A stretch of 64,000 bases of DNA from an uncultured Acidobacteriota bacterium. Lineage in GTDB: Bacteria; Acidobacteriota; JAQAZP01. The stretch spans positions 256,001-320,000 of the forward strand of contig CAWIIB010000009.1 of the NCBI GenBank assembly GCA_963836075.1, read 5' to 3'. A program made the position numbers and the translations under genes. Below are positions 24,031-46,254 of this stretch, one piece after another. Every line of letters starts with the position of its first letter. The stretch's first letter is position 1. The notes beneath the pieces are model-generated. The model was not told where the DNA came from and ran no database searches. It was given only the letters and a program-made list of their open reading frames with translations.

Positions 24031-24046
24031 TTACTCTTCTCCCAGA

Positions 24047-24933
24047 CTAGTACCGCGTGAGTTGATGATATCGATATCGAGTTCCCTCAAGAAACTCCGC
24101 GCTCAAACGCATATCAGCGTTTGAGGCTTTCTTGAAGAATACCTCGGCCACGTCCGGCTGTCCATTCAATTTATAGTGCCGCCCGATCTGATAACAGACA
24201 TCACGGACAATCGCTCGATAGTTATTCTCATATGCAATTTTCAAACATGCGGAAGCATATTCCTTTGCTGCCTCCAAATCATTTCTCTTAAAGCTTGCAT
24301 ACATCAAGGTTTGATAGTTTACGGCCTGATAGATAGAAATCTCCAATCGCTTCACTGATTGAAGGGTCCTTTTTGATCAAGATCAACGCCTTTCTCAATA
24401 TCTCACCGAATGCAATATATGCTTCACCAAAATTGTCATATGTTTCTGAAGGTGCCGTTTTATTCCATAAAGCTGACACAATTCAATTGCATTCACAAAA
24501 CTCTTCGATTGCTTTTTCTAATTGATCCTTGCTATAATATACTCGACCCTTAACCATAGCCAAATACCAAATATTTCGATACGGGGAAATTCTCGTCAAA
24601 TAATGCTTCAGCTTCTTGAATAGTCTCCATCGCCTTCTCGAAATCACGCTGGTTGTATTCAATGAGTGCTCGGTCGAGGTAGGCAAGGGCAACGTAGTAG
24701 TCACTTTCAAAATCATGACCGGCGATATACTCGATCAGATCCAGGGCAGCGGAATAGCTCTCCATCCGGCGATAGACGCACACCAGATCCAGTCCCACCT
24801 CAAGATGGAACTCGGTGAAGTCCTCCGATGAGTTGAACGCCTTGTAGAGCTTGATCTGGGCATCCTGAAACAGGCCCTTCTTGCCCAGCTCAACCCCTTC
24901 CTGGCGAAGGGTCTTCAGTTCTTCATATTTCAT
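24047..24933 (-). CDS. Tetratricopeptide-repeat protein, frameshifted, AT-rich
   Basis: Four consecutive ORF pieces with TPR-like helices (ALAYLDRALIEYNQRDFEKA, KGRVYYSKDQLEKAIEEF, CYQIGRHYKLNGQPDVAEVFFKKA). Confidence 0.65.
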
Positions 24934-25198
24934 TGATGGCTCAGTTGTTTCGGTCAGGCAATCGAATAGAGACACGTGTGGCAGTAACCGCAAGTCGCGA
25001 CAAAAATCCGCCTCACCGATTCCATATCTATGTTTTGATTCAGCCAGATGAAAAATTGAGAGACCTAGTAACTTTCAGCTACCCTATCCATAAAAAATAT
25101 ATACCGTCGTAGCTTTTGTCAAGTCACTGGTTGATAAAATGTTCGTGTTGCCTGGACGTGAGGAGTCACGGCGCGGGTGACCGGTCGGCTGCCTGCTC

Positions 25199-25414
25199 CT
25201 ATTCAACCCCCGCTAAATCGTAGAGCTTCTCCGCATACCGCTCGATGATATCCCGCAGGGCCAGCTTCTCCAGCCACTGGGCCGGGATGCCATTCTCGCC
25301 GTAGAAGGCTCCAGCCAACTGGCCATACACGGCGCCGGTGGTGTCGGCATCGTCACCGAGGTTGACGGCCATGAGGGCGCCGCGAAAGCGGGAAAGAGTG
25401 CGGTCACTCGACAT
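25199..25414 (-). pseudogene. C-terminal fragment of an ADP-ribosylglycohydrolase
   Basis: AVNLGDDADTTGAVYGQLAGAFYG...IPAQWL, with no N-terminal half. Confidence 0.8.
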
Positions 25415-25511
25415 AGTAAAACTATCCTCCCGGCAGTCCTGGAGAGCCCAGATTATCAGGCTACGACCACGATTGTTTTCGTCAGCACATCAACAACTAT
25501 ATCCAGCCTGA

Positions 25512-25853
25512 TTATAGCCGGCCCGTTCGAGCCATCAGCTTCGAAAACGTTATTATCCGCCCAATCGCCCTGTTGTCAGCACCAAGGGTGAGCAGGGAGC
25601 GGATGAGCAGATCGAGGGAAACCGTCGGATCACCGGCTTCCATCTTGGCCACCCGCGACTGGCTGGAGTTCATCAACCCGGCCAGCTCGACCTGGGTCAT
25701 TCTCATCATTTTTCTTCGGTCGCGAAGACTTGTGGCAAGGGCCAGCCGAAGTTCGGTGTAATCCCGTTCGTTCTTTGCCAGGCCGAGGGAGGCCCCAGCC
25801 TCACGATCACCCCGCGCCCCAGTATTTTTCCTCGCCCCCTGGTCCTTGCCCAT
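25512..25853 (-). CDS. XRE/HigA-like HTH antitoxin, orphan
   Basis: MTQVELAGLMNSSQSRVAKMEAGDPTVSLDLLIRSLLTLG. Confidence 0.8.
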   Translation of the reverse strand: MGKDQGARKNTGARGDREAGASLGLAKNERDYTELRLALATSLRDRRKMMRMTQVELAGLMNSSQSRVAKMEAGDPTVSLDLLIRSLLTLGADNRAIGRIITFSKLMARTGRL

Positions 25854-25885
25854 TCACCCTGCCTCCCAAACAGCAAATTTTATTT

Positions 25886-25903
25886 TATGTCATTTCTGAC
25901 ATA
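25886..25903. promoter_or_regulatory. Palindromic operator
   Basis: TATGTCA-TTTC-TGACATA upstream of the HTH gene. Confidence 0.6.
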
Positions 25904-25995
25904 TTTTCAATATTCCATTTCAAACAGGTGACCCTGGCACACGAATCGTGTCCCTGACAGGTCACATGACAAGCTGTTCAGGCAGGAATTACAGG

Positions 25996-26337
25996 CTATT
26001 TGACAGATTCCCAGTCATCCTCGTCAAACTCGATCCAATTGTCATCTGAAACCCAGTCGATGACCGAGCCCCCGCTGATCGGGTAATAGGGGCTGACCAG
26101 CATGTCCATGTTGCCTTCCCGAACGACACGATATTCCTTCACCAGGAATGTCTTGTCCTCGTGGATATCGGTCATTTCGTCATCGAGAGAGGGGACGGGG
26201 ACGAATGGATAGAGCAGCCGCAAGACATCTTCCTTGTACTCATCGGGGATGATGTACTCCTCTACTACCCCTCCCTTCACCTTCAGCGGGCGCGTGGGAA
26301 ACGGCAGTCCCTGTCTCATTCTCTGGTCGGTTCTCAT
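25996..26337 (-). CDS. Hypothetical protein
   Basis: GGAGGTG RBS, plausible acidic protein, operon-like spacing after the DUF1016 gene. Confidence 0.6.
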   Translation of the reverse strand: MRTDQRMRQGLPFPTRPLKVKGGVVEEYIIPDEYKEDVLRLLYPFVPVPSLDDEMTDIHEDKTFLVKEYRVVREGNMDMLVSPYYPISGGSVIDWVSDDNWIEFDEDDWESVK

Positions 26338-26382
26338 CGATCTCACCTCCTGTTTATTCCGCAGATTCCTATTGCCTGGGTC

Positions 26383-27630
26383 TCACCGCCGCTTGCCGCC
26401 AACCGGCCCGAGCGTCTGTTCGATCTCCTCGATGGTGGGCAGGGATGATTTCAGATCTTCGGGCAGGGCCCTGGTCAATTCGTACTCCGAGATGCCGATC
26501 GGTTTCTGGATCCCCCGCAGGGCATACTCGGCGATGAGCTTCTTCCTGTCCTTGCAGAGGATCAGCCCGATGGAAGGGCTGTCGGTGTCGTGCTTCAACT
26601 GGTCGTCCACAACGTTGAGGTAGAAGTTCATCTTCCCTTCATGATCCGGTTTAAACGGGCCGGCCTTGAGCTCGATAACCACGAAGCAGCGCAGCCTCAA
26701 GTGGTAGAAGAGCAGGTCGATATGGAACTCGTCCTCTCCTACGGTGAGCGGAACCTGCCTCCCGACAAAGGAAAAGCCCTTTCCCAGCTCCAGGAGAAAT
26801 CTCTGGAGGTGCCGGATCAGGCCGGCCTCCAGCTCCTTCTCACGAAAGGTGGTGTCTAGGGTCAGAAAGTCAAAGATGTATGGATCTTTCAGTGTCTGGA
26901 GCGCCAGGTCGGACTGGGTTGGGGGCAGGCTCGCCTCGAAGTTGGTGACCGCCTTCCCCTGGCGGAGGTGGGCCGAGTTCTTGATCATCTGCTTTAAGAC
27001 GCTATAGCTCCAGCCTTGGTCAATGATATGCGTCATGTACCAATGCCGGGCGCAAAGGTCTTTAACTGATTGAATCAATAAGATGTTATGGGACCATGAT
27101 AATTTCGCCAACAGTGTTGGCGAAATTGCTGGACGATCTTGGAGATTTTCAGTGGGGGAGGCTGAATTCAACTCACCTTCATCCCCAACGGATCCCTCCT
27201 CCAATTTCGCAAACGGTGTTTGCGGAATTGAGACATTAGAGACAAGTCGTTTTTTATCAATAGCTTGTAATTTCGCCACCAGCGGTGGCGAAATTGGTTC
27301 TCCTCGAGACCCTCCTTGATTTTTCGATTCCTGAAGCTGTCCAACGAATAGAGAGGGATACTCGAGATAAAACTGGAGCATCCTGTCAATATTGCGCTCA
27401 GAAAACCCCTTCAGTCCCGGCAGCTCATTCTTGAGATCCTTCGAAAGCCGGGGGATAACAGAAGTCCCCCACCCCTCCCTCGCCTGCCGCTCGGTAATCA
27501 GCCGGCCGATATCCCAATAAAGGGCCAGCATCTCCCTGTTTGCCGAGAGCGCCGCCCTGGCTTGTGCGCGGCCAATACGGGATTTGATCTCGCTGAGAAG
27601 CGAGGCGTATTGAGTAAGATCGTTGGTCAT
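26383..27630 (-). CDS. DUF1016 / YhcG-like PD-(D/E)XK nuclease
   Basis: LYWDIGRLI, GFSERN, LSWSHN, KDPYIFDFL, LLELGKGFSFVGRQ, IDLLFYHLRLRCFVVIELK. Confidence 0.93.
   Translation of the reverse strand: MTNDLTQYASLLSEIKSRIGRAQARAALSANREMLALYWDIGRLITERQAREGWGTSVIPRLSKDLKNELPGLKGFSERNIDRMLQFYLEYPSLFVGQLQESKNQGGSRGEPISPPLVAKLQAIDKKRLVSNVSIPQTPFAKLEEGSVGDEGELNSASPTENLQDRPAISPTLLAKLSWSHNILLIQSVKDLCARHWYMTHIIDQGWSYSVLKQMIKNSAHLRQGKAVTNFEASLPPTQSDLALQTLKDPYIFDFLTLDTTFREKELEAGLIRHLQRFLLELGKGFSFVGRQVPLTVGEDEFHIDLLFYHLRLRCFVVIELKAGPFKPDHEGKMNFYLNVVDDQLKHDTDSPSIGLILCKDRKKLIAEYALRGIQKPIGISEYELTRALPEDLKSSLPTIEEIEQTLGPVGGKRR
27101..27295. repeat. Three 27-bp coding palindromes AATTTCGC-N11-GCG(A/G)AATT
   Basis: Copies at 27101-27127, 27203-27229 and 27269-27295, inside the DUF1016 linker. 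Confidence 0.8.
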
Positions 27631-31668: not shown

Positions 31669-31798
31669 CGGAATTCCTCACGTTCCACTCGACTGAGATT
31701 TTTCAACAAACTCACGCCAATGGCGCACCCTGGTCAAGAAGAATGGTGTGCCGAAAGAATGAAATCGAAATATAATGTGCCATTCGGTCACCGTACTC

Positions 31799-31827
31799 TT
31801 GCAATCCACTCTGATCTTTGATATGAT
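31799..31827 (+). promoter_or_regulatory. Sigma70 promoter for RNA leader A
   Basis: TTGCAA-N17-TATGAT with an extended -10 TG. The motif begins about 10 nt downstream. Confidence 0.7.
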
Positions 31828-31836
31828 TATTGGGTT

Positions 31837-31940
31837 GCGCCGATTTGATTTCAGCTTGCGGGCGCCATATAAATCCAGCTAAAGAGATGGGATCAGAATG
31901 TTTACCCGCTTTAGCGCACCAAGCTGAGGCGGGTTTTTTA
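31837..31940 (+). ncRNA. Unnamed structured leader RNA, copy 1, with terminator
   Basis: GCGCCGATTTGA-loop-TCAGCTTGCGGGCGC..ATAAAT..GCTAAAG, then ACCCGCTT...GGCGGGTTTTTT. Confidence 0.75.
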
Positions 31941-31993
31941 TTGCCCGGATTCAGCCTTCAAGGGGAGGACCAGCGGTCTCAACAGCAGAATAA

Positions 31994-32100
31994 GCGCCGA
32001 TTTGATTAATCAGCTTGCGGGCGCTCAAAACATACGGCTAAAGCGAGACTTGAACGTCTATCCAGCCCGCTTTGGCCCGTTCAGCCGGAGCGGGCTTTTT
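31994..32100 (+). ncRNA. Unnamed structured leader RNA, copy 2, with terminator
   Basis: GCGCCGATTTGATTAATCAGCTTGCGGGCGC..GGCTAAAGCG, then AGCCCGCTTTGGC...GCCGGAGCGGGCTTTTT. Confidence 0.75.
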
Positions 32101-32169
32101 CGTGCCCGCCCGGCGGACGGGGCGGCACGGTGCCGTCCCGCAATCAACCACCACAGGGAGGGACGGAAG

Positions 32170-33417
32170 ATGGCGAGAGCAGTTGAACTGGGACTGCCGG
32201 GGTACATGGGATTCGGTCGGCTGGATCACGGGTCGATCAGGATGGAGGGTGAGTGTCTGATCGGCAACTACCTGGCCGGGGAGGATCTGGTCTACGAGGT
32301 GACCGCGGGAGGTGACCAGGCGGCCATCGTTGAGTTCTATGACGGAACGATCATCGGCAGAACCGATGACACGAGCGTCGATGAAGCATTGATGCAGCAC
32401 TTCGGCGATGCCCGTCCCTACGCTCACCCGCGATTCGAGGACCTGTTCTATCGTGTTACCAGAGGGCGGAACATCCAGCTGAAATTCGCCGGTCCCTCCC
32501 GAATCGCGTATCACCCGGCGGGTTCCCTGTTCACCCTCGACCAGCCGATCCTGCCCGATCGGCGGCGAGCAGCGGATGATCTTTCTCGCATGATCACCGA
32601 CAGGGGGGCGGCGGCGCCGCTCAGGGAGTATGCCAGGTATAAGGGCTACCTCTTCCGCACAACGGCAGATCTCGACATCGAGATCGAAGAGATCGAGGTC
32701 CAGCGATATCTCACCCTGCTCGTCGACCTTCCGGATGCGGCCGACCTTCTCTGGAATTCCGGCATCGTTCCTCCGACGAAGGAATGGCGACTGGAAATCG
32801 CCGAAGTCCCCTTCGCCATCTCCGGTGAGATGACCGTGCTGCTGACCGGGCAGGGGAACGAATTCCTCACCTACGCCATCCTCGTCGATGACGGATCGCG
32901 TGAAGTGAACTTCGAGAATACGGCCAATTACTTTCGCCTGGCCTCCGAGCATCTGCTTGCGGAAGTCCAATACGGGCGAATTGACGAAGAGGAGGAAGGA
33001 GAGCAGGAATTCGGTACAGTGCCGGAGGACGAACTGGACCTCGAAGAGTGGGACCTATGCGAAGCCATTATGACTTTCGGCTCATGTGAACTCACACACT
33101 ATTGGGACACGGGCGGTATGGCCGGAGGCGGTGTCTCAAGCATCTACGAATACCAGGGCAAGTATTACCCGATCGTGGACGGAATCGTCCTCGGGCCCTA
33201 CCCGACCCTCGACGATGCCATTGATCAGAGCAACATGCTCGACGTGAACAGCGCGACGAAGGGCCTGCTTTCGTCGGCATTTCCCACGGATGAGCTCGCC
33301 CGTCGCTGTGTCGCCGACCAGGCCGGCATCGAGGCCCGAATCAATGGCCGGCGATACGCCGCCAACACGAGCGGCGATCTGCGATGCGTGGATGGAGACG
33401 AGGAAGATGAAGACTGA
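32170..33417 (+). CDS. Hypothetical acidic protein with C-terminal WD(S/T)GG...GPY domain
   Basis: ATG follows an AGGGAGG RBS. The C-terminal region aligns by eye with the 36128-37057 product. Confidence 0.75.
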   Translation: MARAVELGLPGYMGFGRLDHGSIRMEGECLIGNYLAGEDLVYEVTAGGDQAAIVEFYDGTIIGRTDDTSVDEALMQHFGDARPYAHPRFEDLFYRVTRGRNIQLKFAGPSRIAYHPAGSLFTLDQPILPDRRRAADDLSRMITDRGAAAPLREYARYKGYLFRTTADLDIEIEEIEVQRYLTLLVDLPDAADLLWNSGIVPPTKEWRLEIAEVPFAISGEMTVLLTGQGNEFLTYAILVDDGSREVNFENTANYFRLASEHLLAEVQYGRIDEEEEGEQEFGTVPEDELDLEEWDLCEAIMTFGSCELTHYWDTGGMAGGGVSSIYEYQGKYYPIVDGIVLGPYPTLDDAIDQSNMLDVNSATKGLLSSAFPTDELARRCVADQAGIEARINGRRYAANTSGDLRCVDGDEEDED

Positions 33418-33437
33418 TCATCGAGGGGGAAAGAGAA

Positions 33438-34187
33438 TTGTCGACCGTCCTGCACATCCCCCACAGTTCAAGGGTGATCCCCGCCGACCTGAGGGATCCA
33501 TTCCTGCTTTCCGACGAGGAACTGGCGAAGGAGCTCGCCGTGATGACCGACCACTTCACCGACGAGCTCTTCGCCGGCCCCCCGGCCGCAACAACGGTGG
33601 TCCGGTTCCCGGTGAGCCGGCTGGTGGTCGACCCGGAGCGCTATCTCGATGACGCCCTCGAGCCGATGGCGGCACGAGGGATGGGGGTGGTCTACGAGCG
33701 GACATCCGATGGAAAGCAACTGCGCCCTTCGCCAACGCGGGCAGAGCGCATAACGTTGATCAACCGCTTTTACACGCCGCACCACACGGCCCTGAATTCT
33801 GCCATCGAGAAGGCGCTTGGGGAAAGCAGCGCTTGTCTGCTGCTGGACTGCCATAGCTTCCCGTCGACTCCAATCCCCTGCGATCTGGACCCGATGACAG
33901 ACCGGCCGGATATCTGCCTGGGAACGAGTCCGTCCAATACACCTGGCTGGTTGGTGGAGCAAGCCCAGGAGATTCTGGGATCCTGCGGGCTCACCGTGGA
34001 AACTAATCGGCCGTATTCAGGAGTGCTCGTTCCCGAGAGATTCGCAAACGACAATTCAAAAGTGTATGCACTGATGATCGAAATCAATCGCCGCCTGGTA
34101 CATGGACGAACAATCGGGGGGCAAACTGCATGCCTTCCCGGACGTGGCCGCAACAGTTCAGAGGCTGATTCACAACCTGATGAATGA
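33438..34187 (+). CDS. N-formylglutamate amidohydrolase family protein (3' end may be frameshifted)
   Basis: LHIPHSS, MTDHFTDELF, SRLVVDPER, LLDCHSFPS, RPDICLGT, NRPYSG, MIEINR. Confidence 0.9.
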   Translation: MSTVLHIPHSSRVIPADLRDPFLLSDEELAKELAVMTDHFTDELFAGPPAATTVVRFPVSRLVVDPERYLDDALEPMAARGMGVVYERTSDGKQLRPSPTRAERITLINRFYTPHHTALNSAIEKALGESSACLLLDCHSFPSTPIPCDLDPMTDRPDICLGTSPSNTPGWLVEQAQEILGSCGLTVETNRPYSGVLVPERFANDNSKVYALMIEINRRLVHGRTIGGQTACLPGRGRNSSEADSQPDE

Positions 34188-34286
34188 AACGCGAATCCGC
34201 GATCAGCCGTCGCACATATATAGTGGTTCGAGAGGAAGCGCGGAAGTGGTGTCCTGCGCACCGGGCACCCGGTCCCCCCGATTCAC

Positions 34287-35138
34287 TCACTGGGCTATGC
34301 CATCGTCCTCATCATCCTCAACGTCATCGTAGTCCTCGTCTTCGCTGTCATGCAGTATATCCGCCGCCATGTCGATGGCTTCGGACGCAGCGGAAACGAT
34401 GTCTTCATCATCCGAGTCGAGGAAATCGCCGAGGGCCACCGTGGCCTGCTCCGGGCGGATGGCGGCAGCCGCTTCGATGGCGGCGAGCAGCAGGTCCTTG
34501 TCCATGACTTCGTTGGAGAGGATATCGGTAATCAGCGGCCAGGCGTCGGCCACTGGCCAGCTCCCCGCGGCCTCGGCGGCCTCGATCCGCAGATCCCGGC
34601 TGCCGTTGGCCAGCGACTCGAGGATCTGAACTTCGAAACCGTTGATGTACTGCATACAGAAAACGGCGGTCAGCTTCCAGGCCATATCCTCTTCGGCATA
34701 GGCGGCACGGACCGCGTCCGCATGCCAGTCGCGCGGGGCCCGCACCGAGGCCTCCAGGCAGTGGCGACGGACGATCTGCGGTGCGCTGTCATCGGCGTAC
34801 AGGTCATGGAGCCTCTCCTGGATCAGCTGGAACCTGGTCCAGGAAAACGGCGCGTCCTCGAAATCATCCTCGTCCTCCAGGTCCGCGGCCTCGAGGGGCG
34901 GGCCGAATGCGATCGCCGCCCCGGCGCGCAGCTCCTCCGGCTCGGTTTCCCTGCATAAGATATCGAGGAGGAGGCCGGCGAGCCTGTCGTTGATCACGGT
35001 GTATTCCCCGGCCAGACTCACCGCGATAAGGCGGTCTGCTATATCAGCACGCTTGTCCCGCAGAATATCGTATAAAAACCCGTCGGTATCGGATGGCCAG
35101 TTCCAGGGCCGCGATGCTTGCAGTTGTCTCAGGTTCAT
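34287..35138 (-). CDS. HEAT-repeat-like acidic protein
   Basis: Repeated helical motifs (LRAGAAIAFG, VRRHCLEAS, LRIEAAEAAG, DEDIVSAASEAI). Confidence 0.7.
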   Translation of the reverse strand: MNLRQLQASRPWNWPSDTDGFLYDILRDKRADIADRLIAVSLAGEYTVINDRLAGLLLDILCRETEPEELRAGAAIAFGPPLEAADLEDEDDFEDAPFSWTRFQLIQERLHDLYADDSAPQIVRRHCLEASVRAPRDWHADAVRAAYAEEDMAWKLTAVFCMQYINGFEVQILESLANGSRDLRIEAAEAAGSWPVADAWPLITDILSNEVMDKDLLLAAIEAAAAIRPEQATVALGDFLDSDDEDIVSAASEAIDMAADILHDSEDEDYDDVEDDEDDGIAQ

Positions 35139-35345
35139 CTGGTGCTGCCTCAATTAAGTGCGCTGCCTGTCTTGCAGCGACTCGTGTCCCGGTGCTTGAC
35201 GTGATTGATGACCCATTCGGTGATCGTCCGGTCTCCCCGCCGCTCAGGGCCCGGTCGGTCCCGGCCCGTAAATACGGCAACGCGGAAATGGACAGGAGAA
35301 GATAGCCGAAATCGCTAAGGTTTGCCAGTGGAAAATGCGGCGGGC

Positions 35346-36131
35346 CTATGCCAGCCCGGAGGACCGGTGAAGCCGCTCGGCACAGCGCTCGATGACATCT
35401 GACAATTGGTCGTCGAGATACCCGAAGACCCTCTCCTCGATGCTCCCGGGCACGCCGCCGAAAAAGGCCTCAGCGATCCCCCCGGCGATGCAGGCCACCG
35501 TGTCGCTGTCCCCGCCGAGGGAGACCGCATTGCGGATTGTATCCTCGACGCTCCCCGACAACAGGAAGGCGGTGATCGCCTGGGGCACCGAGCCCGGGCA
35601 GGTGACATCGGGCGGGTAATCCTCCCGGATCCGCTCCAGCGAAAGGTTGAGGCGATAGCCGAACGTCGTGCCGATGTACTCCTGGATCCCGGCTTTCCCG
35701 GAGCCGGTCCGGGCCAGGAAAATTGCGGCAGCCACGGCCTGGGCGCCCTTGATCCCCTCGGGGTGGTTGTGGGTCACCCCGGCGCTCTTTCGCGCTTCAT
35801 CCAGCACTTCCTCGAGCGTATCGAAGGCCCAGCCCACCGGGCTGACCCGCATGGCCGACCCGTTGCCGAGGCTCCCGTAAGGTACCCCCTCGCGGGAGGC
35901 CCCCCAGCGCCTGAACATCGGCCCGTAGCCCCGCTCCGGATAGCGCCGGTAGTAGTCACGGTAGGCGGCAGCGTAATCGCCGCCGCTGAGAATAGCGTCA
36001 GCCGTGGCCACGGTGAGCACCGTGTCGTCGGTGAACCGGCACCCCTCCCCGAACAGCGGGAAGTCGGTGCGGTGGATGTTGTGCAGCTCGTAAATGCTGC
36101 CGATGATGTCACCGGCTATGGCGCCGATCAT
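35346..36131 (-). CDS. ADP-ribosylglycohydrolase (DraG/ARH family)
   Basis: GAIAGDIIGSIYE, FTDDT, GNGSAMRVSP, VTHNHPEG, SLGGDSDTVACIAG. Confidence 0.95.
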   Translation of the reverse strand: MIGAIAGDIIGSIYELHNIHRTDFPLFGEGCRFTDDTVLTVATADAILSGGDYAAAYRDYYRRYPERGYGPMFRRWGASREGVPYGSLGNGSAMRVSPVGWAFDTLEEVLDEARKSAGVTHNHPEGIKGAQAVAAAIFLARTGSGKAGIQEYIGTTFGYRLNLSLERIREDYPPDVTCPGSVPQAITAFLLSGSVEDTIRNAVSLGGDSDTVACIAGGIAEAFFGGVPGSIEERVFGYLDDQLSDVIERCAERLHRSSGLA

Positions 36132-37057
36132 GACTTTCCCCTTTTTAAAGAATCGATGTAATCGATGAGATCATCGTCGTCTTCCTTCCTCACGAAGATG
36201 CCGGGCTTCGTCCAGACGTATGGGATGGAGTTGAACCAGACTTCGTGGCCGAGCCGCTCGTCCTCCCCGTCCCCCTGGTAGTGCTCGAACTCGACTTTCT
36301 CCGCCAGCTCATCGGCATCGTGAAAACCGGACCCGATCTCGCCCGTGGCAGTGGTGACCGTGAGCAGGTCCCCCTCCACCGCTTCGTCCACGGTGTCGTA
36401 AGGCCCGAACAATTCTCCACAGTCACAGCAGGGGTAGTAGAACTTCCCCGCCAACTCGTACACCCACTCGACGCCGGCCCCGGCGCCGGGCCCCCCGCTG
36501 TCCCACTCGTGGCTGAACACGCCCTCGCCCTCTTCGGTGAGGACATCCAGAAAGGTCTCGTAATCGTGGAAGTCCGGATCGTTCTCGAGAAGCTCTTTCA
36601 GTTCATCCCCACTGGGGAAGACCACCGGTTCGTTCCGCCGGCCCTGACGTATGACCCGGTAAAAAGGACCCTCGCCGTCGGCGTTCTTCCCCGTAATGAT
36701 GTCCACGATTTCGTTCGGATCTGGCGGCGGCGGTTCTGGGGCCTGTTTTGGTAGCGGGGCGTACTGCTTGTAGTTTTTGTCCTTCTTCCGGCACTCGGCG
36801 CAGACGATCAGCAGGTTGGCAAAGAGCGAACTCCAGTGACCGACCCGGTTGTCCCTCTCGGAGTAAGAGTTGGATCCCGGACGGTTAACGGTGTGTTCAC
36901 CGCACTGCAGGCACGGGACGCCATGACAGATACAGGCGACACTGACCTCCATCTCCGGGTCCGGTTGGAAGCGATCCGAATGGAGATATCGAGCTTTTGT
37001 CGTGCCATTGAACTCGCCGCACACGTCGCAACGTTCAAATCCTGGTGGAATGCTCAT
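36128..37057 (-). CDS. Hypothetical protein, N-terminal Cys-rich zinc-binding region plus WD(S/T)GG...GPY domain
   Basis: CDVC, CICHGVPCLQC and CAEC. AGGGAGG RBS. Stop overlaps the ARG start (ATGA). Confidence 0.8.
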   Translation of the reverse strand: MSIPPGFERCDVCGEFNGTTKARYLHSDRFQPDPEMEVSVACICHGVPCLQCGEHTVNRPGSNSYSERDNRVGHWSSLFANLLIVCAECRKKDKNYKQYAPLPKQAPEPPPPDPNEIVDIITGKNADGEGPFYRVIRQGRRNEPVVFPSGDELKELLENDPDFHDYETFLDVLTEEGEGVFSHEWDSGGPGAGAGVEWVYELAGKFYYPCCDCGELFGPYDTVDEAVEGDLLTVTTATGEIGSGFHDADELAEKVEFEHYQGDGEDERLGHEVWFNSIPYVWTKPGIFVRKEDDDDLIDYIDSLKRGKS

Positions 37058-37134
37058 CCCAGCCCTCCCTTGATGATTGGGTGAAACTGACGGGACGGAA
37101 CTCTTCCGCCCCGACCGCCGGGAGGGCTCGAAGG

Positions 37135-37231
37135 AGGCCCCGAACCGGCTGGATCAGGGCTAACGCGGGCAGGATTGCTCGCTTTAGCCGCATTTATTGA
37201 GCGCCCGCAATCTGAGTGGTCAAATCGGCGC
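37135..37231 (-). ncRNA. Unnamed structured leader RNA, copy 4 (terminator degenerate)
   Basis: Minus strand GCGCCGATTTGACCACTCAGATTGCGGGCGCTCAATAAATGCGGCTAAAGCG..CCCGCGTTAGC, with no U-tract. Confidence 0.7.
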
Positions 37232-37264
37232 TGTGTTCAATCTGTCGTGCTGATTCAGGGCATG

Positions 37265-37368
37265 AAAAAACCCGCTCCAGCCTGCGGGGCCAAAGCGGGT
37301 TCGAATGCCTATCCGATCGCTTTAGCGTAATTTATAATGCGCCCGCAAGCTGAGAATCAAATCAGCGC
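37265..37368 (-). ncRNA. Unnamed structured leader RNA, copy 3, with terminator
   Basis: Minus strand GCGCTGATTTGATTCTCAGCTTGCGGGCGCATTATAAATTACGCTAAAGCG, then AACCCGCTTTGGCC...GGCTGGAGCGGGTTTTTT. Confidence 0.75.
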
Positions 37369-37378
37369 AACAATATGT

Positions 37379-37407
37379 AATATAACTTCTTACAGTGATT
37401 TTGTCAA
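37379..37407 (-). promoter_or_regulatory. Sigma70 promoter for RNA leader B
   Basis: TTGACA-N17-TATATT on the minus strand, about 10 nt before copy 3. Confidence 0.75.
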
Positions 37408-37431
37408 GTCGACTGGTGAGATAATTTCACT

Positions 37432-37872
37432 TCAGTCGTCCACCGGTCCAGCCGTCGCTGCCCAGGCTCGGATCACCGTGAGATCGTCGGTGGAGAGCCG
37501 GGCTTCGGGGTGGGCCGGCAGGTAGAACCAGAGCGGCATCTCCCCCTCCTCCACCTCCTCCCAGATCTCGTGCATCATCTTGGCCCGTTTCTCGTGGTCC
37601 ATCAGGTCCCAGTTGGAGAAGTTGAGATGCTCGCGGCCCTCCTTGACATCGTTCGCGACGAGCCACGAGACCGGAGCGACCTTCGAATACCACGGCCAGA
37701 CGGTCTCGTTGGAGTGGCAGTCGTAGCAGGCGCGCTGGAAGATGGCCGTCACCTCCACCGGGGCGAACTGCCCGGTCCCGCCCGGGGGATTCGTTCGCCT
37801 GACCGGAATCAGCTGGATCAGGATCAGGATCGCGACCAGTCCGACTGCGGATCGAATGATGATTTTTTTCAC
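37432..37872 (-). CDS. Haem-binding domain (c-type cytochrome) protein
   Basis: RACYDCHSNETVWPWYSKVAPVSW, GREHLNFS, EMPLWFY. Confidence 0.9.
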   Translation of the reverse strand: MKKIIIRSAVGLVAILILIQLIPVRRTNPPGGTGQFAPVEVTAIFQRACYDCHSNETVWPWYSKVAPVSWLVANDVKEGREHLNFSNWDLMDHEKRAKMMHEIWEEVEEGEMPLWFYLPAHPEARLSTDDLTVIRAWAATAGPVDD

Positions 37873-38648: not shown

Positions 38649-38987
38649 TCAGGCTCCAATTATTTCGTTCAGGCCTTCGATCGTATTCGTAAGCTCTTCA
38701 GCTGTCGCCCGACCAAGGCGCCGGCCAATGCGCTCGATGGCCAATGTTCTTATCTGACTGATCTTGACCCAGGAACGCTTTGGCAAACCCTTGGATGTCA
38801 GTTCCAAGGTGAGGGGAAACCCGGCACGCGGAGGCTGGCTGGTGAGAGCAACGGCAATGACCGTTCCGGAACGTTCATTGAAAATATCCTGGCTCAGAAT
38901 CAGGACCGGTCGCTTGCCGGCCTGCTCATGTCCTCTGGCCGGATTGAGGTTTGCCCAACGGATATCTCCTCTCAATACTCTGGCCAT
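38649..38987 (-). CDS. mazF: PemK/MazF family toxin
   Basis: [32 protein letters not shown]. Confidence 0.92.
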
Positions 38988-39214
38988 TCACTCAACTCCT
39001 CGGACATGCCCTCTTCGGCCAGTGCTTTTTCAAAGTTCGGATCAAGTTTGGCACACTCAGCAGCAAGACGGTGCCTGCGGAGCCTGTCGAGCTTCTCTGA
39101 TACAGCTAATTGAATGGCTTGACTCCGGTTGTTGAAGATCTGTTCTTTGACCAGGCGATCAAGTTCTTCCAATGTCAACTGGTCAATGGTGATCGCGATT
39201 TTTGTTCTGCCCAT
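38972..39214 (-). CDS. CopG/RHH antitoxin
   Basis: KIAITID...[10 protein letters not shown]...ECAKLDP...WPEY, overlapping the toxin start. Confidence 0.88.
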
Positions 39215-39227
39215 GCCCGCACCTCCT

Positions 39228-39248
39228 GGTATGATAATATGTCATACC
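39228..39248. promoter_or_regulatory. TA operator palindrome
   Basis: GGTATGA-N7-TCATACC just upstream of the antitoxin RBS. Confidence 0.7.
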
Positions 39249-39411
39249 TCGGAGATTGGTCAAGCTTTATCGAGAGTAGAGGGCAGTTCCGACCAGTTTG
39301 GTTTCCGCGTGGAAACCCATGGTGTCAGGGACAGAGTGCCCGAGCCACATGAAACCTGGATCTACCCCAAGTTCAGGGATTTGTGTTGCAACTCGCATGC
39401 CGAAAGGAAGG

Positions 39412-41038
39412 TTACCACCCCAGCACAAACAACCGGTGCTTGGCCCTGGTGGCCCCCACGTAGTAGAGGTGCGGGTCGATGGAGTTGAGGTCGACGTCGA
39501 CCAGGATCACCACATCGGCCTCAAGTCCTTTGAAGCGGTGGATGGTGGAGTAGACGATGCGGTGGAAGCCGGGCTCGTCACCGAGCTTGATCACCCGGAA
39601 GTTGCCCAGCCGGCCCTCGCCGGCAAGGCAGGAGTTCCGCTTGCGGTGGGTGCCGAGGACCGCAACCTGGTGCTCCTTGAGCCCCTCCCCCACCACCAGC
39701 TGGTGGAGCAGCTGCTGGACACGCCCCACCTGCTTTGTCGGGTCGTCGAACCGCTCGACGGTGGGCGGCTCGCCCTCCACCACCTCGCCGGGGGCCGGGT
39801 CGTCGCCGATCAGTTTCCGGGCAAAACTGTTGATCGCCGCGGTGGAGCGGCAGTTGCGGTCGAGGAAGAAGCACTCCTCCTCCGCGAGACACCTGGCGCA
39901 CTCGCCGTAAACCTTCTGGTCCCGGTCAAAGAAGACCGTGCGGGCCCCGCCCCCCTCGGTGATGGCGTCCACCACGATCCACCACTCGTCCTTGAAGTCC
40001 TGCCCTTCGTCGATGACCAGCGACTGGCAGCAGACATCCACCGTGGCCTGGGCCTCGAGGAAGAGGTCGAGGGCCCCGGTGCGGAAAAACTCCGCGTCGG
40101 CCTCACCCTTGCGCGGCCAGGTGAGCCCCGCCTCCTCCACCTTGAGCCGGATGTAGTGGTGGAAGGTGCAGGCCTCGGCCCCGGTCCCCTCCAGCTCGCG
40201 GGCGGCATAAGTGGCCAGCGGGTCGTTGAAGCAGAGGTAGAGGGTCTTGCGGCCCAGCCCCGCCTCCCGCCGCGCCTTCTCGATGGCCAGCACGGTCTTG
40301 CCCGAGCCGGCCCGGCCGCAGATGTAGGCCCGCTCCCGGTCCCCCATGAACTCGATCAGCCGTTTCTGCTCGTCGGTCAGCCGCAGGAAGACTACCTTTT
40401 CGTCACGGATGTCCCAGGAGAGCTTGCGCACGATGTTGAAGGCCGGGTTGAGGATCTCCATCGCCGCCTGCTCGTCCTGCTTTTCGAGCCCGGGCAGCAT
40501 GGGGTATTTGCGCTGCCAGAAGCTGAACACGCCGTCCAGGGCAGCACCGATATCATTGAAGGCCGTGGCATCGATGATGATCTCCCTGCGGCATCCCGGG
40601 CGTCTCCTCGTTGAACGGCACATCGGGGAAGATGACGCAGTGGCCGATGGGCGCGGGGAACCCGCGTGTCGAACCGCCGGTGTTTCTTCAGCTTCGAGAG
40701 GATGGTGAGGGCCGAGGTGCGGGCCTGCTTGCCAGGGTCCTTGATCGAGATGGGTATCGTCGCGCTTGTCGCCGCTGAACCAGCGGCCGCTGCTCATCCC
40801 GCCGGAAGACGACGCCCCCCTTGACCTCGCAGACCAGGATCCCCTTCTCGGGATGAAAGACGAGGAAGTCGATCTCGCCAAGGGGCTGGAAGTCTCCCTT
40901 GGCATTGACCCATTCAAGGGAGTGGAAGACCGTGTAATCGTCGCCGAGCTGGTCTTTGAGGGCGAGGTAGAGCTTCTTCTCGGCGTTGACGATGCCGGCT
41001 TCGATGATCTCGGTTGGGGGAATGAAGGTTGGCATCAT
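39412..41038 (-). CDS. NERD nuclease plus SF1 helicase fusion, frameshifted
   Basis: GEIDFLVFHPEKGILVCEVKGG, GRAGSGKT, VIDEGQD, NCRST, TIHRFKGLE, YVGATRA. Confidence 0.85.
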
Positions 41039-41304
41039 CGGTTTTCCTTCAGGATTCTCGTTCCACCAACGCATTCAGCCAATGCTCGCTCTCGCGTCCT
41101 GGGCGCGCATCAGCAGTCCGCCAGATCTCGGGCTCGCCGAGGCCGGGGACGACCGCCAGGAGGTGCCGCATATCGTTCATCGTCCTCGACCGCCCGTGGC
41201 GCCAGCCCGTCGTCGCCGACTCTCGAGGGATCGCCGCGTCGCGGGCTGCGCCCGCTCCTCGCGATGACCGGAGGGGCGGTCGTGCCCGCGCCAGCCTCCA
41301 AGGC

Positions 41305-42282
41305 CTACGCCGTCAGCGCCCGCACCGCCTTCTTCAGCAGGTTGCGGGCCAGGGCCACCTTGTAGCCGTTCTGCTCCAACGGCTCGGCGCCGGCCAGGGC
41401 CGATTCGGCCAGGGTGTCCAGGTTCTCCGCCGAGATCTTGAACCCGGCCAGCTTCGCCGAAACCGCCTTCTCCAGCCAGGGCACGGGGGCGATGCCGCCG
41501 AAGGCCACCGCGCCGGACATCACCGTGCGGCTCCGGGGGACGAGCACCGCGGCGACGCTGGCCACGGCGAAGTCGAACGACTCCCGCTCACGGATCTTGA
41601 CATAGGCGCTCCTCGTCCCGTTGGCCGGCTCGGGCACCTGGACCGCGGTGACGATCTCGCCCGGCCCGAGGATGGTCTCGCGGGTGAAGTCCTCTTCGGG
41701 CAGGACGAAGAACTCGCGAACCGGCACCTCCCGCTCGCCGTCGCGGCCGGCCACGGTGAGCACGGCATCGAGCGCGGTGAGCGCCACCGCGGTGTCCGAG
41801 GGGTGGACGATGTAGCAGGGTCCGCCGCCGATGACGCAGTGGTAGCGGTTTTCCCCATTCTCTGCAAAGCACTCGGTGCCGCCCTTCTTCAAGCAGTCGA
41901 AATCCCCGCGGAAGTACCAGCAGCGGGGCCGCTGGCAGAGGTTGCCGCCCAGGGTGCCCACGTTGCGCAGCTGGGGCGAAGCGGCCGAGCCGGCGGCCTC
42001 GGCGAGCACAGTCCACTTCTCGCGGATCTCCGGGTGCCTGGCGAGCTCGGCGAGTTTCACCAGCGCCCCGATGCGCAGGCCCTTGCCGGGGAGGAGCTCG
42101 ATCCCGTCCATCCCCTTGATCTTTTTGAGATCGATGAGCCGCCCCGGGGCGACCCTGCCGTCCTTGATCAGGCCGAGCAGGTCGGTGCCGCCGGCGATGA
42201 AGTGCCCTTCGCTCTTTTCGCTGCTGCCCAGGGCCACGGCGTCCTTGACCGTGCCCGGGTGTTCGTAGGTGAATTCGTCCAT
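41305..42282 (-). CDS. Xanthine dehydrogenase family FAD subunit with 4Fe-4S insert (PaoB/YagS-like)
   Basis: IAGGTDL, ASPQLRNVGTLGGNLCQRPRCWYFR, CLKKGGTEC, HPSD. Confidence 0.93.
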   Translation of the reverse strand: MDEFTYEHPGTVKDAVALGSSEKSEGHFIAGGTDLLGLIKDGRVAPGRLIDLKKIKGMDGIELLPGKGLRIGALVKLAELARHPEIREKWTVLAEAAGSAASPQLRNVGTLGGNLCQRPRCWYFRGDFDCLKKGGTECFAENGENRYHCVIGGGPCYIVHPSDTAVALTALDAVLTVAGRDGEREVPVREFFVLPEEDFTRETILGPGEIVTAVQVPEPANGTRSAYVKIRERESFDFAVASVAAVLVPRSRTVMSGAVAFGGIAPVPWLEKAVSAKLAGFKISAENLDTLAESALAGAEPLEQNGYKVALARNLLKKAVRALTA

Positions 42283-42304
42283 CTCTGTCTCCTTCCCTCG
42301 CGGC

Positions 42305-44614
42305 TCAGCTCGATACCGCGGCCAGGGCCTCGAGCACCCGTGCCGGGGTCATCGGCAGGTCCTTCACCCGGACCCCGATGGCGTTGTACACGGCGTTGGC
42401 GATGGCGCCGGCAGTGGGGATGTGCGCCGGTTCCCCGCACCCCTTCACCCCGGTGTTGCTGATCAACGGGTCGGCGTCGCTGACCACGATGACCTCGATC
42501 TCCGGCATGTCCATCATCGTCGGCATCTTGTAGCCGTGGAGGTTGGCGTTGAGCACGCGGCCGCTTCTTCTATCCACCACCTGCTGCTCGCAGAGGGCGT
42601 AGCCCACGCCCTGGATGATGCCGCCGTGCATCTGGTTCTCCATGGTCATGCGGTTCAAGACCAGGCCGATATCGTGGGCCGCGACGACCTTCTTCACCCG
42701 GATGCGTCCGGTCTCGGTGTCCACCTCCACCTCGGCGAACTGTGCGCCGAAGGTATTGATGGCGTAGCCCTCGGGGTTGGCGCCCCGCGCCCCGGTGGTG
42801 ACCAGTGTCTGCTCGCGCAGCTGCTGGAAGATCGCCGGGACCTCCACCGTCTTTGACGAGTCGCTGCGGGAGGTGACGGCGCCGGCGGCGAGTTCGAGGT
42901 CGCCCTCGGGCAGCTCGAGGATCGCCGCACCGGCGGAGATCAGCTTGGCCTTCATCAGCTCGGCCGCCTCCTTCACCGCCGGCGAGACCGACGGCGCGGT
43001 GAGGCTGCCGCCGCTCACCACGCAGTAGGGCCCGGCGGCGGTGTCGCCCACGGTGACACTGATCTTCTCCAGCGGGATGCCCAGCACCTCGGCGACGATC
43101 ATCGCCATGAAGGTCATCGTGCCGGTGCCGATGTCCTGGGTGCCGGCCAGCACCCGGGCGCTGCCGTCGCTGTTCAGCTTGAGGATGCAGCCCGAGGGCG
43201 GGGTGCCGCCGCCCCACCAGATCTGCGAGGCCATGCCCAGGCCGGTCTTCACCGGGCCGGCCCCGCCGCCCGGGGTCTTGCTGCGGCGGTCCCAGCCGAT
43301 GGCCTCGGCGCCCCGGCGGTAGGCCTCGATGAGCCGCTTCGAACTGTAGGGCAGATCGCTCACCTGGTCCTGGTCGGTGTGGTTGAGGACGCGCAGCTCC
43401 ACCGGGTCCATACCCAGCTTCTCCGCCAGGTCGTCGATCAGCGACTCGAGGGCGAAGGTGCCGGGCACGTGCCCCGGCGCCCGCATCGGGCACGCCGGGC
43501 CGGTGTTGCCGTGCACCGAGTACTCCTCGACGCTGACGTTGCCGCACTGGTAAAGCGTTTTCAGCGGCCAGCTGCAGCCGGCGCCGTAGGGGTAGGCCCC
43601 CACCGAGCCGTGGGAGTACATCCGCATCGCCTTCAGTTTCCCGTCCCTGCCCGCCCCGATCTTCAGCTTCTGCACCGAGTCGGGCCGGTTGCCCATGGCC
43701 AGGTTCATCTCCCGCCGGTCCATGGTGATCTTCACCGGGCGGCCGATCCGCCGGGCGAGGATGGCGGCCATCACGCTGTGCTTGCCGCAGGAGAGCTTGC
43801 TGCCGAAGCCGCCGCCCATGTACTTCTTGATCACCCGGACATGGCTCGAGGGGATCTTCAGCTTGCCGGCAATGGTGTCGCGCACCGAGTAGACCGCCTG
43901 GGTCGAGTCCCAGACGGTGAGCCGGTCGCCGTCCCAGTTGGCCACCGACCCGTGGGGCTCGGTGGGGTTGTGCACCGCCACCCGGGTGCTGAAGTCGCCC
44001 TCGACGACGACGTCGGCTTCGGTGAAGCCCTGCTCCACGTCCCCCCGGCTGTAAGGCTGGGAGCGGTTCTCGACGATGTTGCCGTAGTCGTGGAGCTGCG
44101 GCGCCCCCTCCTTCATCGCCTCGGCCGGGTCGGTGACGAAGGGCAGCCGCTCGTAGTCCACCTCGATGGCCCTGGCCGCCTGCTCGGCGACGGCCGCCGT
44201 CTCGGCCACCACGCAGGCCACCTCGTCCCCCTCGTACCTCAGGTGCGGGTCGAAAAGGAAGGTGGTTGCGCCGCGCCAGGGGATCGGTTCCGTGTTCTCG
44301 TGGGTGATGATGTCGAGCACACCCCTTATCCGCCGCGCCCGCGAGACGTCGATCGACCTGACCCGCGCGTGGGGATGGGGGCACCGGAGGACCCGGCCGT
44401 GGGCCATCTGCGGCAAATTGACATCGAAGGTGTACTCTGCCGTCCCGCTGACCTTGTCGTAGCCGTCGATGCGGGGGACCTCGGTGCCGACCACCTTCAG
44501 CTTCTCCCCCGGCTGCCAGGCCGCGGTCTCCCTGACCGACACCTCGGCGAGCTGTTCGGTCATCTCGTCGTCGGCGTAGTATTTCGTTTTGACGATCTTC
44601 TGGTCGCTCATCAC
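42305..44614 (-). CDS. Xanthine dehydrogenase family molybdopterin subunit (PaoC/YagR-like)
   Basis: KVSGTAEY, YMGGGFGSK, MRAPG, QDIGTG, GGIIQGVG, KGCGEP. Confidence 0.95.
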   Translation of the reverse strand: MMSDQKIVKTKYYADDEMTEQLAEVSVRETAAWQPGEKLKVVGTEVPRIDGYDKVSGTAEYTFDVNLPQMAHGRVLRCPHPHARVRSIDVSRARRIRGVLDIITHENTEPIPWRGATTFLFDPHLRYEGDEVACVVAETAAVAEQAARAIEVDYERLPFVTDPAEAMKEGAPQLHDYGNIVENRSQPYSRGDVEQGFTEADVVVEGDFSTRVAVHNPTEPHGSVANWDGDRLTVWDSTQAVYSVRDTIAGKLKIPSSHVRVIKKYMGGGFGSKLSCGKHSVMAAILARRIGRPVKITMDRREMNLAMGNRPDSVQKLKIGAGRDGKLKAMRMYSHGSVGAYPYGAGCSWPLKTLYQCGNVSVEEYSVHGNTGPACPMRAPGHVPGTFALESLIDDLAEKLGMDPVELRVLNHTDQDQVSDLPYSSKRLIEAYRRGAEAIGWDRRSKTPGGGAGPVKTGLGMASQIWWGGGTPPSGCILKLNSDGSARVLAGTQDIGTGTMTFMAMIVAEVLGIPLEKISVTVGDTAAGPYCVVSGGSLTAPSVSPAVKEAAELMKAKLISAGAAILELPEGDLELAAGAVTSRSDSSKTVEVPAIFQQLREQTLVTTGARGANPEGYAINTFGAQFAEVEVDTETGRIRVKKVVAAHDIGLVLNRMTMENQMHGGIIQGVGYALCEQQVVDRRSGRVLNANLHGYKMPTMMDMPEIEVIVVSDADPLISNTGVKGCGEPAHIPTAGAIANAVYNAIGVRVKDLPMTPARVLEALAAVSS

Positions 44615-45225
44615 CTGGCCCTCCCCTTCTGCTCAGCCGCCTTGAGGACCGAGGCCATGATGTTGGGGTAGGCGGCGCAGCGGCAGACCGTGCCGGCCAT
44701 GCCCTCCTTGATCTGCGCCGCCGTGGGGTGGGGGTGGAGGTTGAGCAGCCCCTGGGCCGCCATCACCTGCCCCGGGGTGCAGAAGCCGCACTGCAGGCCG
44801 TCGTGGTCGACAAAGGCCTGCTGGATCGGGTGCAGCTCCTCGCCGTCGAGCAGCCCCTCCACCGTGGTGACCTCCCGCCCCGCGGCGTCGAGGGCCAGCA
44901 GGTGGCAGGAGCAGACCGCCTCGCCGTCGAGGAGCACGGTGCAGGCCCCGCACTCCCCCTGGTTGCAGACCACCTTGGTCCCGGTGAGGCCCAGCTGGTC
45001 GCGCAGCAGTTCGACCAGCGTCTCGGACGGCCTGACCATCAGGGTGTGGCGCTTGCCGTTGACCGTGAGGGCCAGCCGCTCGCTGCCCTCATGCGGCGCG
45101 CTCTGTTTTGCCTCACCCTCGGTCCCCTGCGCGGACAGGGCCTCGGTGACCACCGCCGAACCGACGATGCCCGTGCCCACCTGTTTCATGAATGTCCGGC
45201 GGGGCGGTTCTTTCTTCTCTGCCAT
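44611..45225 (-). CDS. 2Fe-2S subunit with Tat signal (PaoA/YagT-like)
   Basis: RRTFMK twin-arginine motif, CNQGECGACT, QCGFCTPG, CRCAAY. Confidence 0.93.
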   Translation of the reverse strand: MAEKKEPPRRTFMKQVGTGIVGSAVVTEALSAQGTEGEAKQSAPHEGSERLALTVNGKRHTLMVRPSETLVELLRDQLGLTGTKVVCNQGECGACTVLLDGEAVCSCHLLALDAAGREVTTVEGLLDGEELHPIQQAFVDHDGLQCGFCTPGQVMAAQGLLNLHPHPTAAQIKEGMAGTVCRCAAYPNIMASVLKAAEQKGRAR

Positions 45226-45449
45226 GGCCTGCTCCTTTCCGCATCCCCCGCGGTGCACGGCCAAAGAAAGGCACAGCACACCGGGATGGGCCGCCGGTGT
45301 CCGCTGAAGCCGGCCCCCGGGCGCAGCCGAGAGGGATGCCCGGCGGACAAGTGGCGGTCAAATTCACCTGGAGGAGAATCGACATGCTATGGGTGCACTA
45401 TACCAGAAGTGGGAGGGAGAGGGAGGGGGATGGGCAGACAACCTGCGCC

Positions 45450-45749: not shown

Positions 45750-45936
45750 CCGGCTTGACACCACGATGACAACGCGAAGTTCCACCCACTTGTTTCGCGG
45801 ACAGGGAATCATCGTCTAATCAAACACTTCCGTTTTGGCCCGCAAGTTGCTTCCCCTTCGATCGACATTTGATCAGGTCGAGGTTGGCCGAACAACAACA
45901 GCTTGACAATATGCATATTTGTGCATATATCTGTGA

Positions 45937-46240: not shown

Positions 46241-46254
46241 CAGGGTTGACCGGC

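Follow-up and report, generated by a model that had tools for sequence, protein, structure and literature searches.

The SAM-II riboswitch (Rfam RF00521, SAM_alpha), a sensor of S-adenosylmethionine (SAM) reported as the 'metA motif' (Corbino 2005, PMC1273637), is the closest described relative of the RNA elements considered here: four copies of a short motif that stand, two by two, in the leaders of two convergent operons in DNA from an uncultured Acidobacteriota bacterium. The stretch analysed, referred to below as the window, comprises 64,000 nucleotides (nt), positions 256,001 to 320,000 of contig CAWIIB010000009.1 (GenBank assembly GCA_963836075.1). In the 2005 account a promoter lies a few nt 5' of the P1 stem and many members of the class carry a terminator after P2, and it is because of this terminator that SAM-II is described as an OFF switch. 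All four copies in the window belong to the SAM-II class by sequence and by structure, and very probably they are functional, SAM-sensing OFF switches arranged in series.

Tandem SAM-II arrangements are also on record. A survey (Sherlock 2022, PMC9481103) catalogues 44 SAM-II doublets, among them some with a terminator after each aptamer ('pseudo-cooperative') and others with a terminator followed by a ribosome-binding-site platform ('bi-mechanism'). The leaders in the window (called + and - after their strand) resemble these doublets in having two complete SAM-II units each; in the - leader the terminator comes first and a non-terminator platform, near a sequence complementary to the Shine-Dalgarno sequence (anti-SD and SD), comes second. 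They differ in that the two doublets face each other on convergent operons, in that our folds show no SD access dependent on the second aptamer, and in that three relatives (genome G001 and metagenome contigs L050 and L051) carry three aptamers, where the survey's listing for SAM-II gives doublets only. Leaders in which two SAM sensors follow one another, with a terminator closing the first, were reported in 2009 (as related in PMC9481103 and PMC6061858) and share that layout with the present ones. Here, however, both sensors are SAM-II, with no match to SAM-V in the tandem leaders among all 4227 Rfam families at E up to 10, and the cargo is neither bhmT nor metY.

Four SAM-II aptamers and their leaders

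A preliminary description of this DNA, made from its letters, had taken the repeated element for an unnamed RNA fitting no familiar riboswitch consensus, and had added that a match to a known Rfam family would remove its novelty. Such a match exists. In a cmscan search against Rfam 15, RF00521 is the sole match in the whole window at gathering thresholds (37378-37301, 39.2 bits, the gathering score being 36 bits). With E-value reporting over 31700-37500 all four copies match the full model, positions 1-79, at 39.2, 33.5, 30.7 and 29.0 bits (E 2.3e-6 to 1.4e-3 for the 5.8 kb scanned), and no other riboswitch family is matched in that region. The reading as a new riboswitch class is thus rejected, and standard annotation at the gathering threshold would pick up one copy in four. 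The count of copies, two on each strand, was right: the pattern GCGCYGATTTGA-N2-8-CAGMTTGCGGGCGC-N8-16-GCTAAAG has exactly four matches in the window and none in 100 dinucleotide-preserving shuffles, and the core is about 50 nt long in every copy. The aptamers are as follows.

31827..31903, + strand: SAM-II aptamer +1, core 31837-31884; 30.7 bits, E 4.6e-4
31984..32063, + strand: SAM-II aptamer +2, core 31994-32043; 33.5 bits, E 8.1e-5
37301..37378, - strand: SAM-II aptamer -1, core 37368-37320; 39.2 bits, above the gathering score
37163..37241, - strand: SAM-II aptamer -2, core 37231-37182; 29.0 bits, E 1.4e-3; A for C before the UU of P2

The P1 stem, GAUUUG third strand, GCUUGC, A-rich L3 and GCUAAAG tail of the class are all present, as are the promoter a few nt before P1 and the intrinsic terminator after P2 that overlaps the tail. 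The locus departs from the class in that the host appears not to be an alpha-proteobacterium (its proteins find their nearest matches in KSB1, Melioribacteraceae and Calditrichia MAGs), the downstream genes are not those of methionine/SAM biosynthesis and three of the copies score slightly under the threshold.

To examine the structure we aligned 24 aptamers; besides the four in the window, these were six from two further members of the genus and fourteen from seven genomes elsewhere in the phylum. Four of the six P1 pairs change on both sides (CG, UA and GC types), with 32 doubly changed cells against 13.5 in shuffles; none of 500 shuffles reaches the observed score, and pairing in register holds in 86% of cells against 32-45% in slid registers. 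Invariant in all 24 are GCUAAA in the tail, UUGC in P2 and AUU in the third-strand GAUUUG, whose next U is nearly so; every P2 and third-strand letter is present in all four window copies.

How the ligand would be held can be judged from the SAM-V structure (Huang and Lilley 2018, PMC6061858), in which the adenine of SAM pairs with the bulged U of the tail, the sulfonium lies against a U:A.U triple and the amino-acid end is bound by the third A; SAM binding by SAM-II is there stated to be virtually identical. When contacts are mapped from this SAM-V structure, the equivalent nucleotides (the bulged U of GCUAAAG, the U:A.U triple and the third A) are unchanged in all four copies. The C-to-A change of copy -2, just before the UU, falls at the position of A18 of the SAM-V structure and recurs in copies from genome G049, including G049_HMT, which stands before a methionine gene.

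Aligned over their full length, promoter to start codon, the two leaders have a mean column identity of 82%; outside the aptamers they contain the following elements.

31799..31827, + strand: sigma-70-like promoter of the + operon, TTGCAA, 17 nt, TATGAT, with TG (consensus scan)
31904..31940, + strand: intrinsic terminator of unit +1, stem 31904-31934; 5' arm CCCGCUUUAGC, complementary to the GCUAAAG tail
32064..32101, + strand: intrinsic terminator of unit +2, 13-bp stem 32064-32096 and U-tract
32104..32169, + strand: GC-rich hairpin inside an anti-SD/SD helix, GCCCGCCC ... GGGAGGG, directly before the start codon; kept in the + leader of G001
37379..37407, - strand: sigma-70-like promoter of the - operon, TTGACA, 17 nt, TATATT, 11/12 (consensus scan)
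37265..37300, - strand: intrinsic terminator of unit -1, stem 37300-37271 (37288-37271 as scanned), U-tract 37270-37265
37137..37160, - strand: weak hairpin after aptamer -2, lacking a U-tract; a degenerate or non-canonical expression platform
37053..37136, - strand: GC-rich hairpin inside an anti-SD/SD helix, GCCCUCCC ... GGGAGGGC, conserved between both leaders (from folds)

Each promoter-like site lies about 10 nt 5' of the first aptamer of its leader, and three copies (+1, +2 and -1, not -2) end in a GC stem and U-tract; on both points the preliminary description is borne out by the scans. Its mutually exclusive antiterminator can be read from the sequence as complementarity between the tail and the 5' arm of the terminator, amounting to 7 bp in unit +1, 9 bp with one G-U in units +2 and -1, and eight of nine positions in unit -2, and it is the pairing predicted by the unconstrained minimum-energy fold of unit -1. 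Ligand-sensing cis-regulators in tandem, with antiterminator and terminator excluding one another, as that description had them, are the architecture reported for SAM-II (PMC1273637) and for its doublets (PMC9481103).

Behind its single promoter the + leader has a terminator for each of its two aptamers and is thus of the 'pseudo-cooperative' kind, one 5' untranslated region holding two complete riboswitches that sense the same ligand through separate platforms. The - leader likewise carries two aptamers, with a clear terminator after the first; the platform after the second is degenerate, and the anti-SD/SD helix lies beyond it. In thermodynamic folds of this leader the GGAGG sequence is unpaired with a probability of 0.03 when the aptamer is free and 0.002 when it is closed. 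Control of SD access by aptamer -2, which we considered, is therefore unsupported, and because the SD sequence is buried whether the aptamer is open or closed no platform can be assigned to this copy.

Two side observations concern these leaders. The hairpin GGACGGGGCGG...CCGUCCC, set within the CCC(G/U)CCC:GGGAGGG Shine-Dalgarno helix between the last riboswitch unit and the start codon, matches no Rfam family and is also found at L030 2300-2368. Separately, every aptamer-plus-terminator unit is matched on its antisense strand by RF02424 (Bp2_287, a SIPHT-predicted 'Burkholderia sRNA'), with scores of up to 35.8 bits where the gathering score is 70 (in the window 31801-31938 (-), 31967-32100 (-) and 37265-37400 (+); also in L030 and L051). 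The consensus of RF02424 includes the reverse complement of the SAM-II core and tail, and this family probably represents a SAM-II riboswitch plus terminator whose model was built from the wrong strand.

SAM-II leaders in relatives and across the phylum

The + leader heads genes A and B, and the - leader heads genes C, D and probably E, the last gene of that operon, which begins after a 192-nt gap from D.

32170..33417, + strand: gene A, 415 amino acids (aa), N-terminal X domain and C-terminal Y domain, orphan
33438..34187, + strand: gene B, 249 aa, FGase-family amidohydrolase PF05013 (Pfam E 3e-50; PDB 2q7s, E 5e-11)
36128..37057, - strand: gene C, 309 aa, Cys-rich N-terminus, middle domain and C-terminal Y domain
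35346..36131, - strand: gene D, 261 aa, ADP-ribosylglycohydrolase (ARH) PF03747 (Pfam E 1.5e-35), nearest ARH3 (PDB E 2e-16)
34287..35153, - strand: gene E, 288 aa, HEAT-repeat protein with an acidic C-terminus (HEAT_2, E 8e-7)

Comparable loci are found in relatives. In G001, a genome of the same genus, three aptamers (33.4, 21.4 and 28.0 bits) precede a C homologue and an ARH gene, with a Gp49/helix-turn-helix (HTH) pair, a second ARH gene and a HEAT protein further on; on the convergent side a single aptamer with terminator, hairpin and SD helix precedes a Y gene and an X gene. The metagenome contig L049, whose C protein is 72% identical, has a doublet followed by C, ARH, DUF6717 and a DUF1016_N protein, and two others, L050 and L051 (50% identical), have a triplet followed by C and ARH. 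L051 also has a convergent doublet before an FGase gene; the 337-aa open reading frame beside the latter was considered as an A homologue and proved unrelated to A. No SAM-II match accompanies the stand-alone Y genes (40-44% identical) of three contigs. The triplets before C homologues lie at 10545-10244 (-) in L030 (G001 contig C323) and at 3590-3890 (+) in L050 and L051, and their middle aptamer, which reaches 19-21 bits, is not followed by its own terminator.

In the second genome of the genus, G002, the orthologous doublet heads other cargo: two small proteins of 111 and 251 aa that belong to no family (L031, G002 contig C185, 2904-4297). The cargo has been swapped here behind a conserved leader. 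Copy -1 is 92% identical to the first copy of G002 and 86% to that of G001, and copy -2 is 96-98% identical to the second copies of G002 and L049. Copies -1 and -2, by comparison, are 77% identical to each other, and identities between neighbours in the same leader (77-81%) lie under those between counterparts in different genomes (92-98%). The tandem is old, and selection has kept the two copies of a pair distinct since a time before the species diverged.

The genome to which the window belongs (6.23 Mb, 10 contigs, 94.7% complete) contains, at E <= 1, the four copies and one further RF00521 match of 16.3 bits; a loose regular expression returns the four copies alone. Neither SAM-I (RF00162) nor SAM-I/IV (RF01725) is found in it at E <= 0.01, SAM-IV, SAM-V, SAM-VI, SAM/SAH and S-adenosylhomocysteine (SAH) riboswitches not having been searched genome-wide. 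Among 61 related genomes sampled, 11 have an RF00521 match at E <= 0.01 and four a match above the cut-off. Outside the genus we examined 13 loci, leaving out one further match at a contig edge (G021); the genes downstream of the aptamer, all in other genomes of the phylum, are the following.

4 loci: metH
4 loci: fusion of homocysteine methyltransferase and MTHFR (HMT-MTHFR)
2 loci: Cys/Met pyridoxal-phosphate (PLP) enzyme
2 loci: ThrC-like PALP gene, one behind an SDR gene and one with a doublet
1 locus: AhpC

At ten of the 13 loci the aptamers thus precede a metH, HMT-MTHFR or Cys/Met PLP gene, each with a terminator whose 5' arm is complementary to the tail. The cores of the G037 metH aptamer and of the G050 aptamer are nearly the same as those in the window. 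At one locus of the distant genome G049 (L032, contig C14, 3048-3239) a SAM-II doublet with a terminator for each unit stands before a 412-aa ThrC-like PALP gene. Within the genus, all RF00521 matches lie at accessory loci, three of them on one G001 contig and two on one G002 contig. The association with methionine genes describes the usual regulon of this RNA, and not the RNA itself.

Cargo proteins and surroundings

Two of the cargo proteins can be placed in families by profile. Gene B reaches 171.8 bits with the N-formylglutamate amidohydrolase family PF05013 (cut-off 28.9) and 52.2 bits with the HutG equivalog (cut-off 278.75). Gene D reaches 123.8 bits with PF03747 (cut-off 26.2), the family of the ARH3, DraG and Tri1-type enzymes, and lies, as B does with HutG, far under the equivalog cut-offs of DraG (45.6 against 337 bits) and Tri1 (28.9 against 490 bits). 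In its alignment to human ARH3 (2foz), D has TDDT and GGDSDT stretches, which we take to be metal-site motifs. As for the HEAT protein, its gene is also present at the G001 locus and a Y+HEAT fusion (P0033) exists.

Genes A and C have no Pfam, NCBIfam, PADLOC or PHROGs match. They share the C-terminal Y domain (33007-33369 (+) and 36233-36610 (-); 44% identity over 75 residues, E 8e-13), which is about 125 aa long and has the motif F.H.WDSGGPGAGA ... GP..TL.EA ... V..AT ... INGE.W. Y is widespread: a profile search recovers 593 cluster representatives of it at E <= 1e-3 and 290 at E <= 1e-10, mostly proteins of 120-150 aa. No Pfam domain covers Y in the 28 representatives sampled, two of which are fusions to TPR or HEAT repeats, and one Y member is labelled in its source as of the TIGR02996 family. 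Y is found in two of 301 genomes of the phylum sampled and in no viral contig. The family of C as a whole has seven members among 5.8 billion clustered proteins, with no relative in the genome contigs searched. A word-indexed search with the X domain of A returned only itself; one relative was found by hand in G001, as a separate gene downstream of a stand-alone Y gene.

Structural comparison gave no convincing neighbour for a confident model of the Y domain (predicted local distance difference test, pLDDT, 84.7), the best Foldseek match being at E 0.21 and the best VIA Z-score 4.5. Two candidates were set aside as below the trusted level: PARP WGR domains for Y (Z 3.1-3.2, root-mean-square deviation 4.1-4.3, 78-80 residues aligned) and the colicin E5 RNase domain for C (Foldseek PDB E 0.08, TM 0.31; best VIA Z 3.6). 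The whole-protein model of C has a pLDDT of 65, its N-terminal 109 residues being below 50, and neither C nor Y has a usable match in the ESM Atlas (best 0.77). Literature searches linking a SAM riboswitch with an ADP-ribosylglycohydrolase, or a riboswitch with a defense island and S-adenosylmethionine, returned nothing, and the papers listed for a SAM lyase together with phage and riboswitch seemed, from title and opening of the abstract, to have no bearing.

The convergent operons are flanked by MlaE and ABC genes on one side and by a haem-binding-domain gene on the other. Candidate defence or conflict genes cluster at 20963-27630 and 38649-51689, a GIY-YIG fragment and an HTH gene being also among them, and include the following; the cargo proteins themselves match no PADLOC model apart from a weak HEAT row.

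20963-21568: PDC-M05A (PADLOC match)
21607-22692: ARPP-1 (Pfam match)
26383-27630: PDC-S02 / YhcG nuclease (PADLOC match)
38649-38987: MazF (Pfam match)
39412-40917: NERD/UvrD-type helicase (PADLOC match)
47901-49493: pAgo-like protein (PADLOC match)
49629-51689: PDC-S41 (PADLOC match)

Proposed SAM sensing and its alternatives

We infer that the four elements bind SAM and act as OFF switches, on the strength of their class match and covariation, of a ligand site, terminators and antiterminators that are intact, and of the selection on each copy. By analogy with the SAM-II family, each leader would consist of two complete riboswitches in series, each an H-type pseudoknot aptamer with its own expression platform. 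At high SAM, the GCUAAAG tail would be locked into the P2 triple helix round the ligand, leaving the GC stem and U-tract to form and transcription to stop; at low SAM the free tail would pair with the 5' arm of the terminator, CGCUUU(A/G)GC, as an antiterminator, and RNA polymerase would read through. Two such switches in series would multiply their read-through probabilities, giving less leak and a steeper, 'pseudo-cooperative' response. Copy -2, which has lost the canonical terminator, may act otherwise or weakly, and the conserved anti-SD/SD helix would damp translation further, so that both operons would be expressed only when cellular SAM falls.

A number of observations weigh against this reading. 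Three of the copies are under the RF00521 gathering threshold (29.0-33.5 against 36 bits). Since the P2 and third-strand columns of the 24 aptamers never vary, the pseudoknot is supported by conservation and not by covariation. Copy -2 has no U-tract terminator, and in the predicted folds the SD sequence is sequestered in either aptamer state, which leaves a translational role for this copy unsupported. As to the genes controlled, the usual association of SAM-II with methionine/SAM biosynthesis is not seen at this locus, and no connection with methionine or SAM metabolism is recognisable in the cargo. Nor is the motif found upstream of five methionine-gene loci located by tblastn in the same genome, namely metH, the HMT-MTHFR fusion, an HMT paralogue and two Cys/Met PLP genes.

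Some of these points could be met by supposing that the aptamers, though derived from SAM-II, have shifted to SAH, decarboxylated SAM or a nucleotide linked to ADP-ribose metabolism. Such a shift would account for the non-methionine cargo, has a precedent in rare SAM-I variants that sense spermidine (described in PMC10853860) and fits the sub-threshold scores of three copies. We consider it very unlikely nevertheless: all positions equivalent to SAM contacts are unchanged, practically the same core controls metH and a Cys/Met PLP enzyme in G037 and G050, and the one substitution near the site, that of copy -2, corresponds to A18 of SAM-V and occurs in G049_HMT before a methionine gene. The invariant contact positions and the near-identical aptamers upstream of metH and the Cys/Met PLP enzyme in the same phylum likewise leave the ligands suggested in the preliminary description (ADP-ribose, NAD+ and nucleotide signals) without support. 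It is more improbable still that the aptamers are decayed relics and the leaders constitutive attenuators or insulators. The terminator missing from copy -2 and the 19-21 bits of the middle copies of triple arrays would be expected of decay, but the cores are conserved with copy-specific orthology in G000, G001, G002 and three metagenome contigs, their ligand-contact positions are invariant, and a series of two or three strong terminators, were they constitutive, would shut the operons down for good.

A further proposal is compatible with SAM-sensing OFF switches and concerns the cargo: the operons may be an unrecognised route of methionine/SAM salvage or sparing, for example with an FGase-like enzyme freeing an amino acid from an N-acyl or N-formyl precursor and an ARH-like enzyme cleaving a ribosyl conjugate, and SAM control would then be ordinary feedback. 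Genes for methionine/SAM supply are the usual SAM-II targets, both in the 2005 account (PMC1273637) and at the phylum loci, and B and D are hydrolases with intact family signatures. We think this rather unlikely all the same, as none of the components matches a known enzyme for methionine or SAM, each operon opens with a gene for an orphan, non-enzyme-like protein and the orthologous leader of G002 heads entirely different small proteins; the presence of Y in two of 301 phylum genomes also fits an accessory module better than core metabolism. More speculatively, and with little confidence, we suggest that in this genus the class has been taken out of methionine control and made into a two- or three-stage sensor of SAM collapse, which switches on interchangeable accessory cassettes (a Y-domain protein with an ADP-ribosylglycohydrolase, a Y-domain protein with an FGase-like amidohydrolase, other small proteins in G002) as a metabolite alarm for a conflict or dormancy module. 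The trigger could be a phage SAM-degrading enzyme or severe starvation. The very tight serial switch, swappable cargo, patchy distribution of Y and defence-rich surroundings are compatible with such a role.

The RNA itself, a textbook riboswitch class in an arrangement already catalogued, is of little import; what is new is the odd regulon of a known riboswitch. The locus is a clean natural case of SAM-II doublets, with triplets in relatives, and is suited to testing how serial terminators sharpen a response. It would tie a known signal, low SAM, to genes that are as yet unnamed, encoding a domain of about 125 aa, an ARH3-like hydrolase and an FGase-like amidohydrolase, and the inducing condition would offer a practical handle on what these proteins do.

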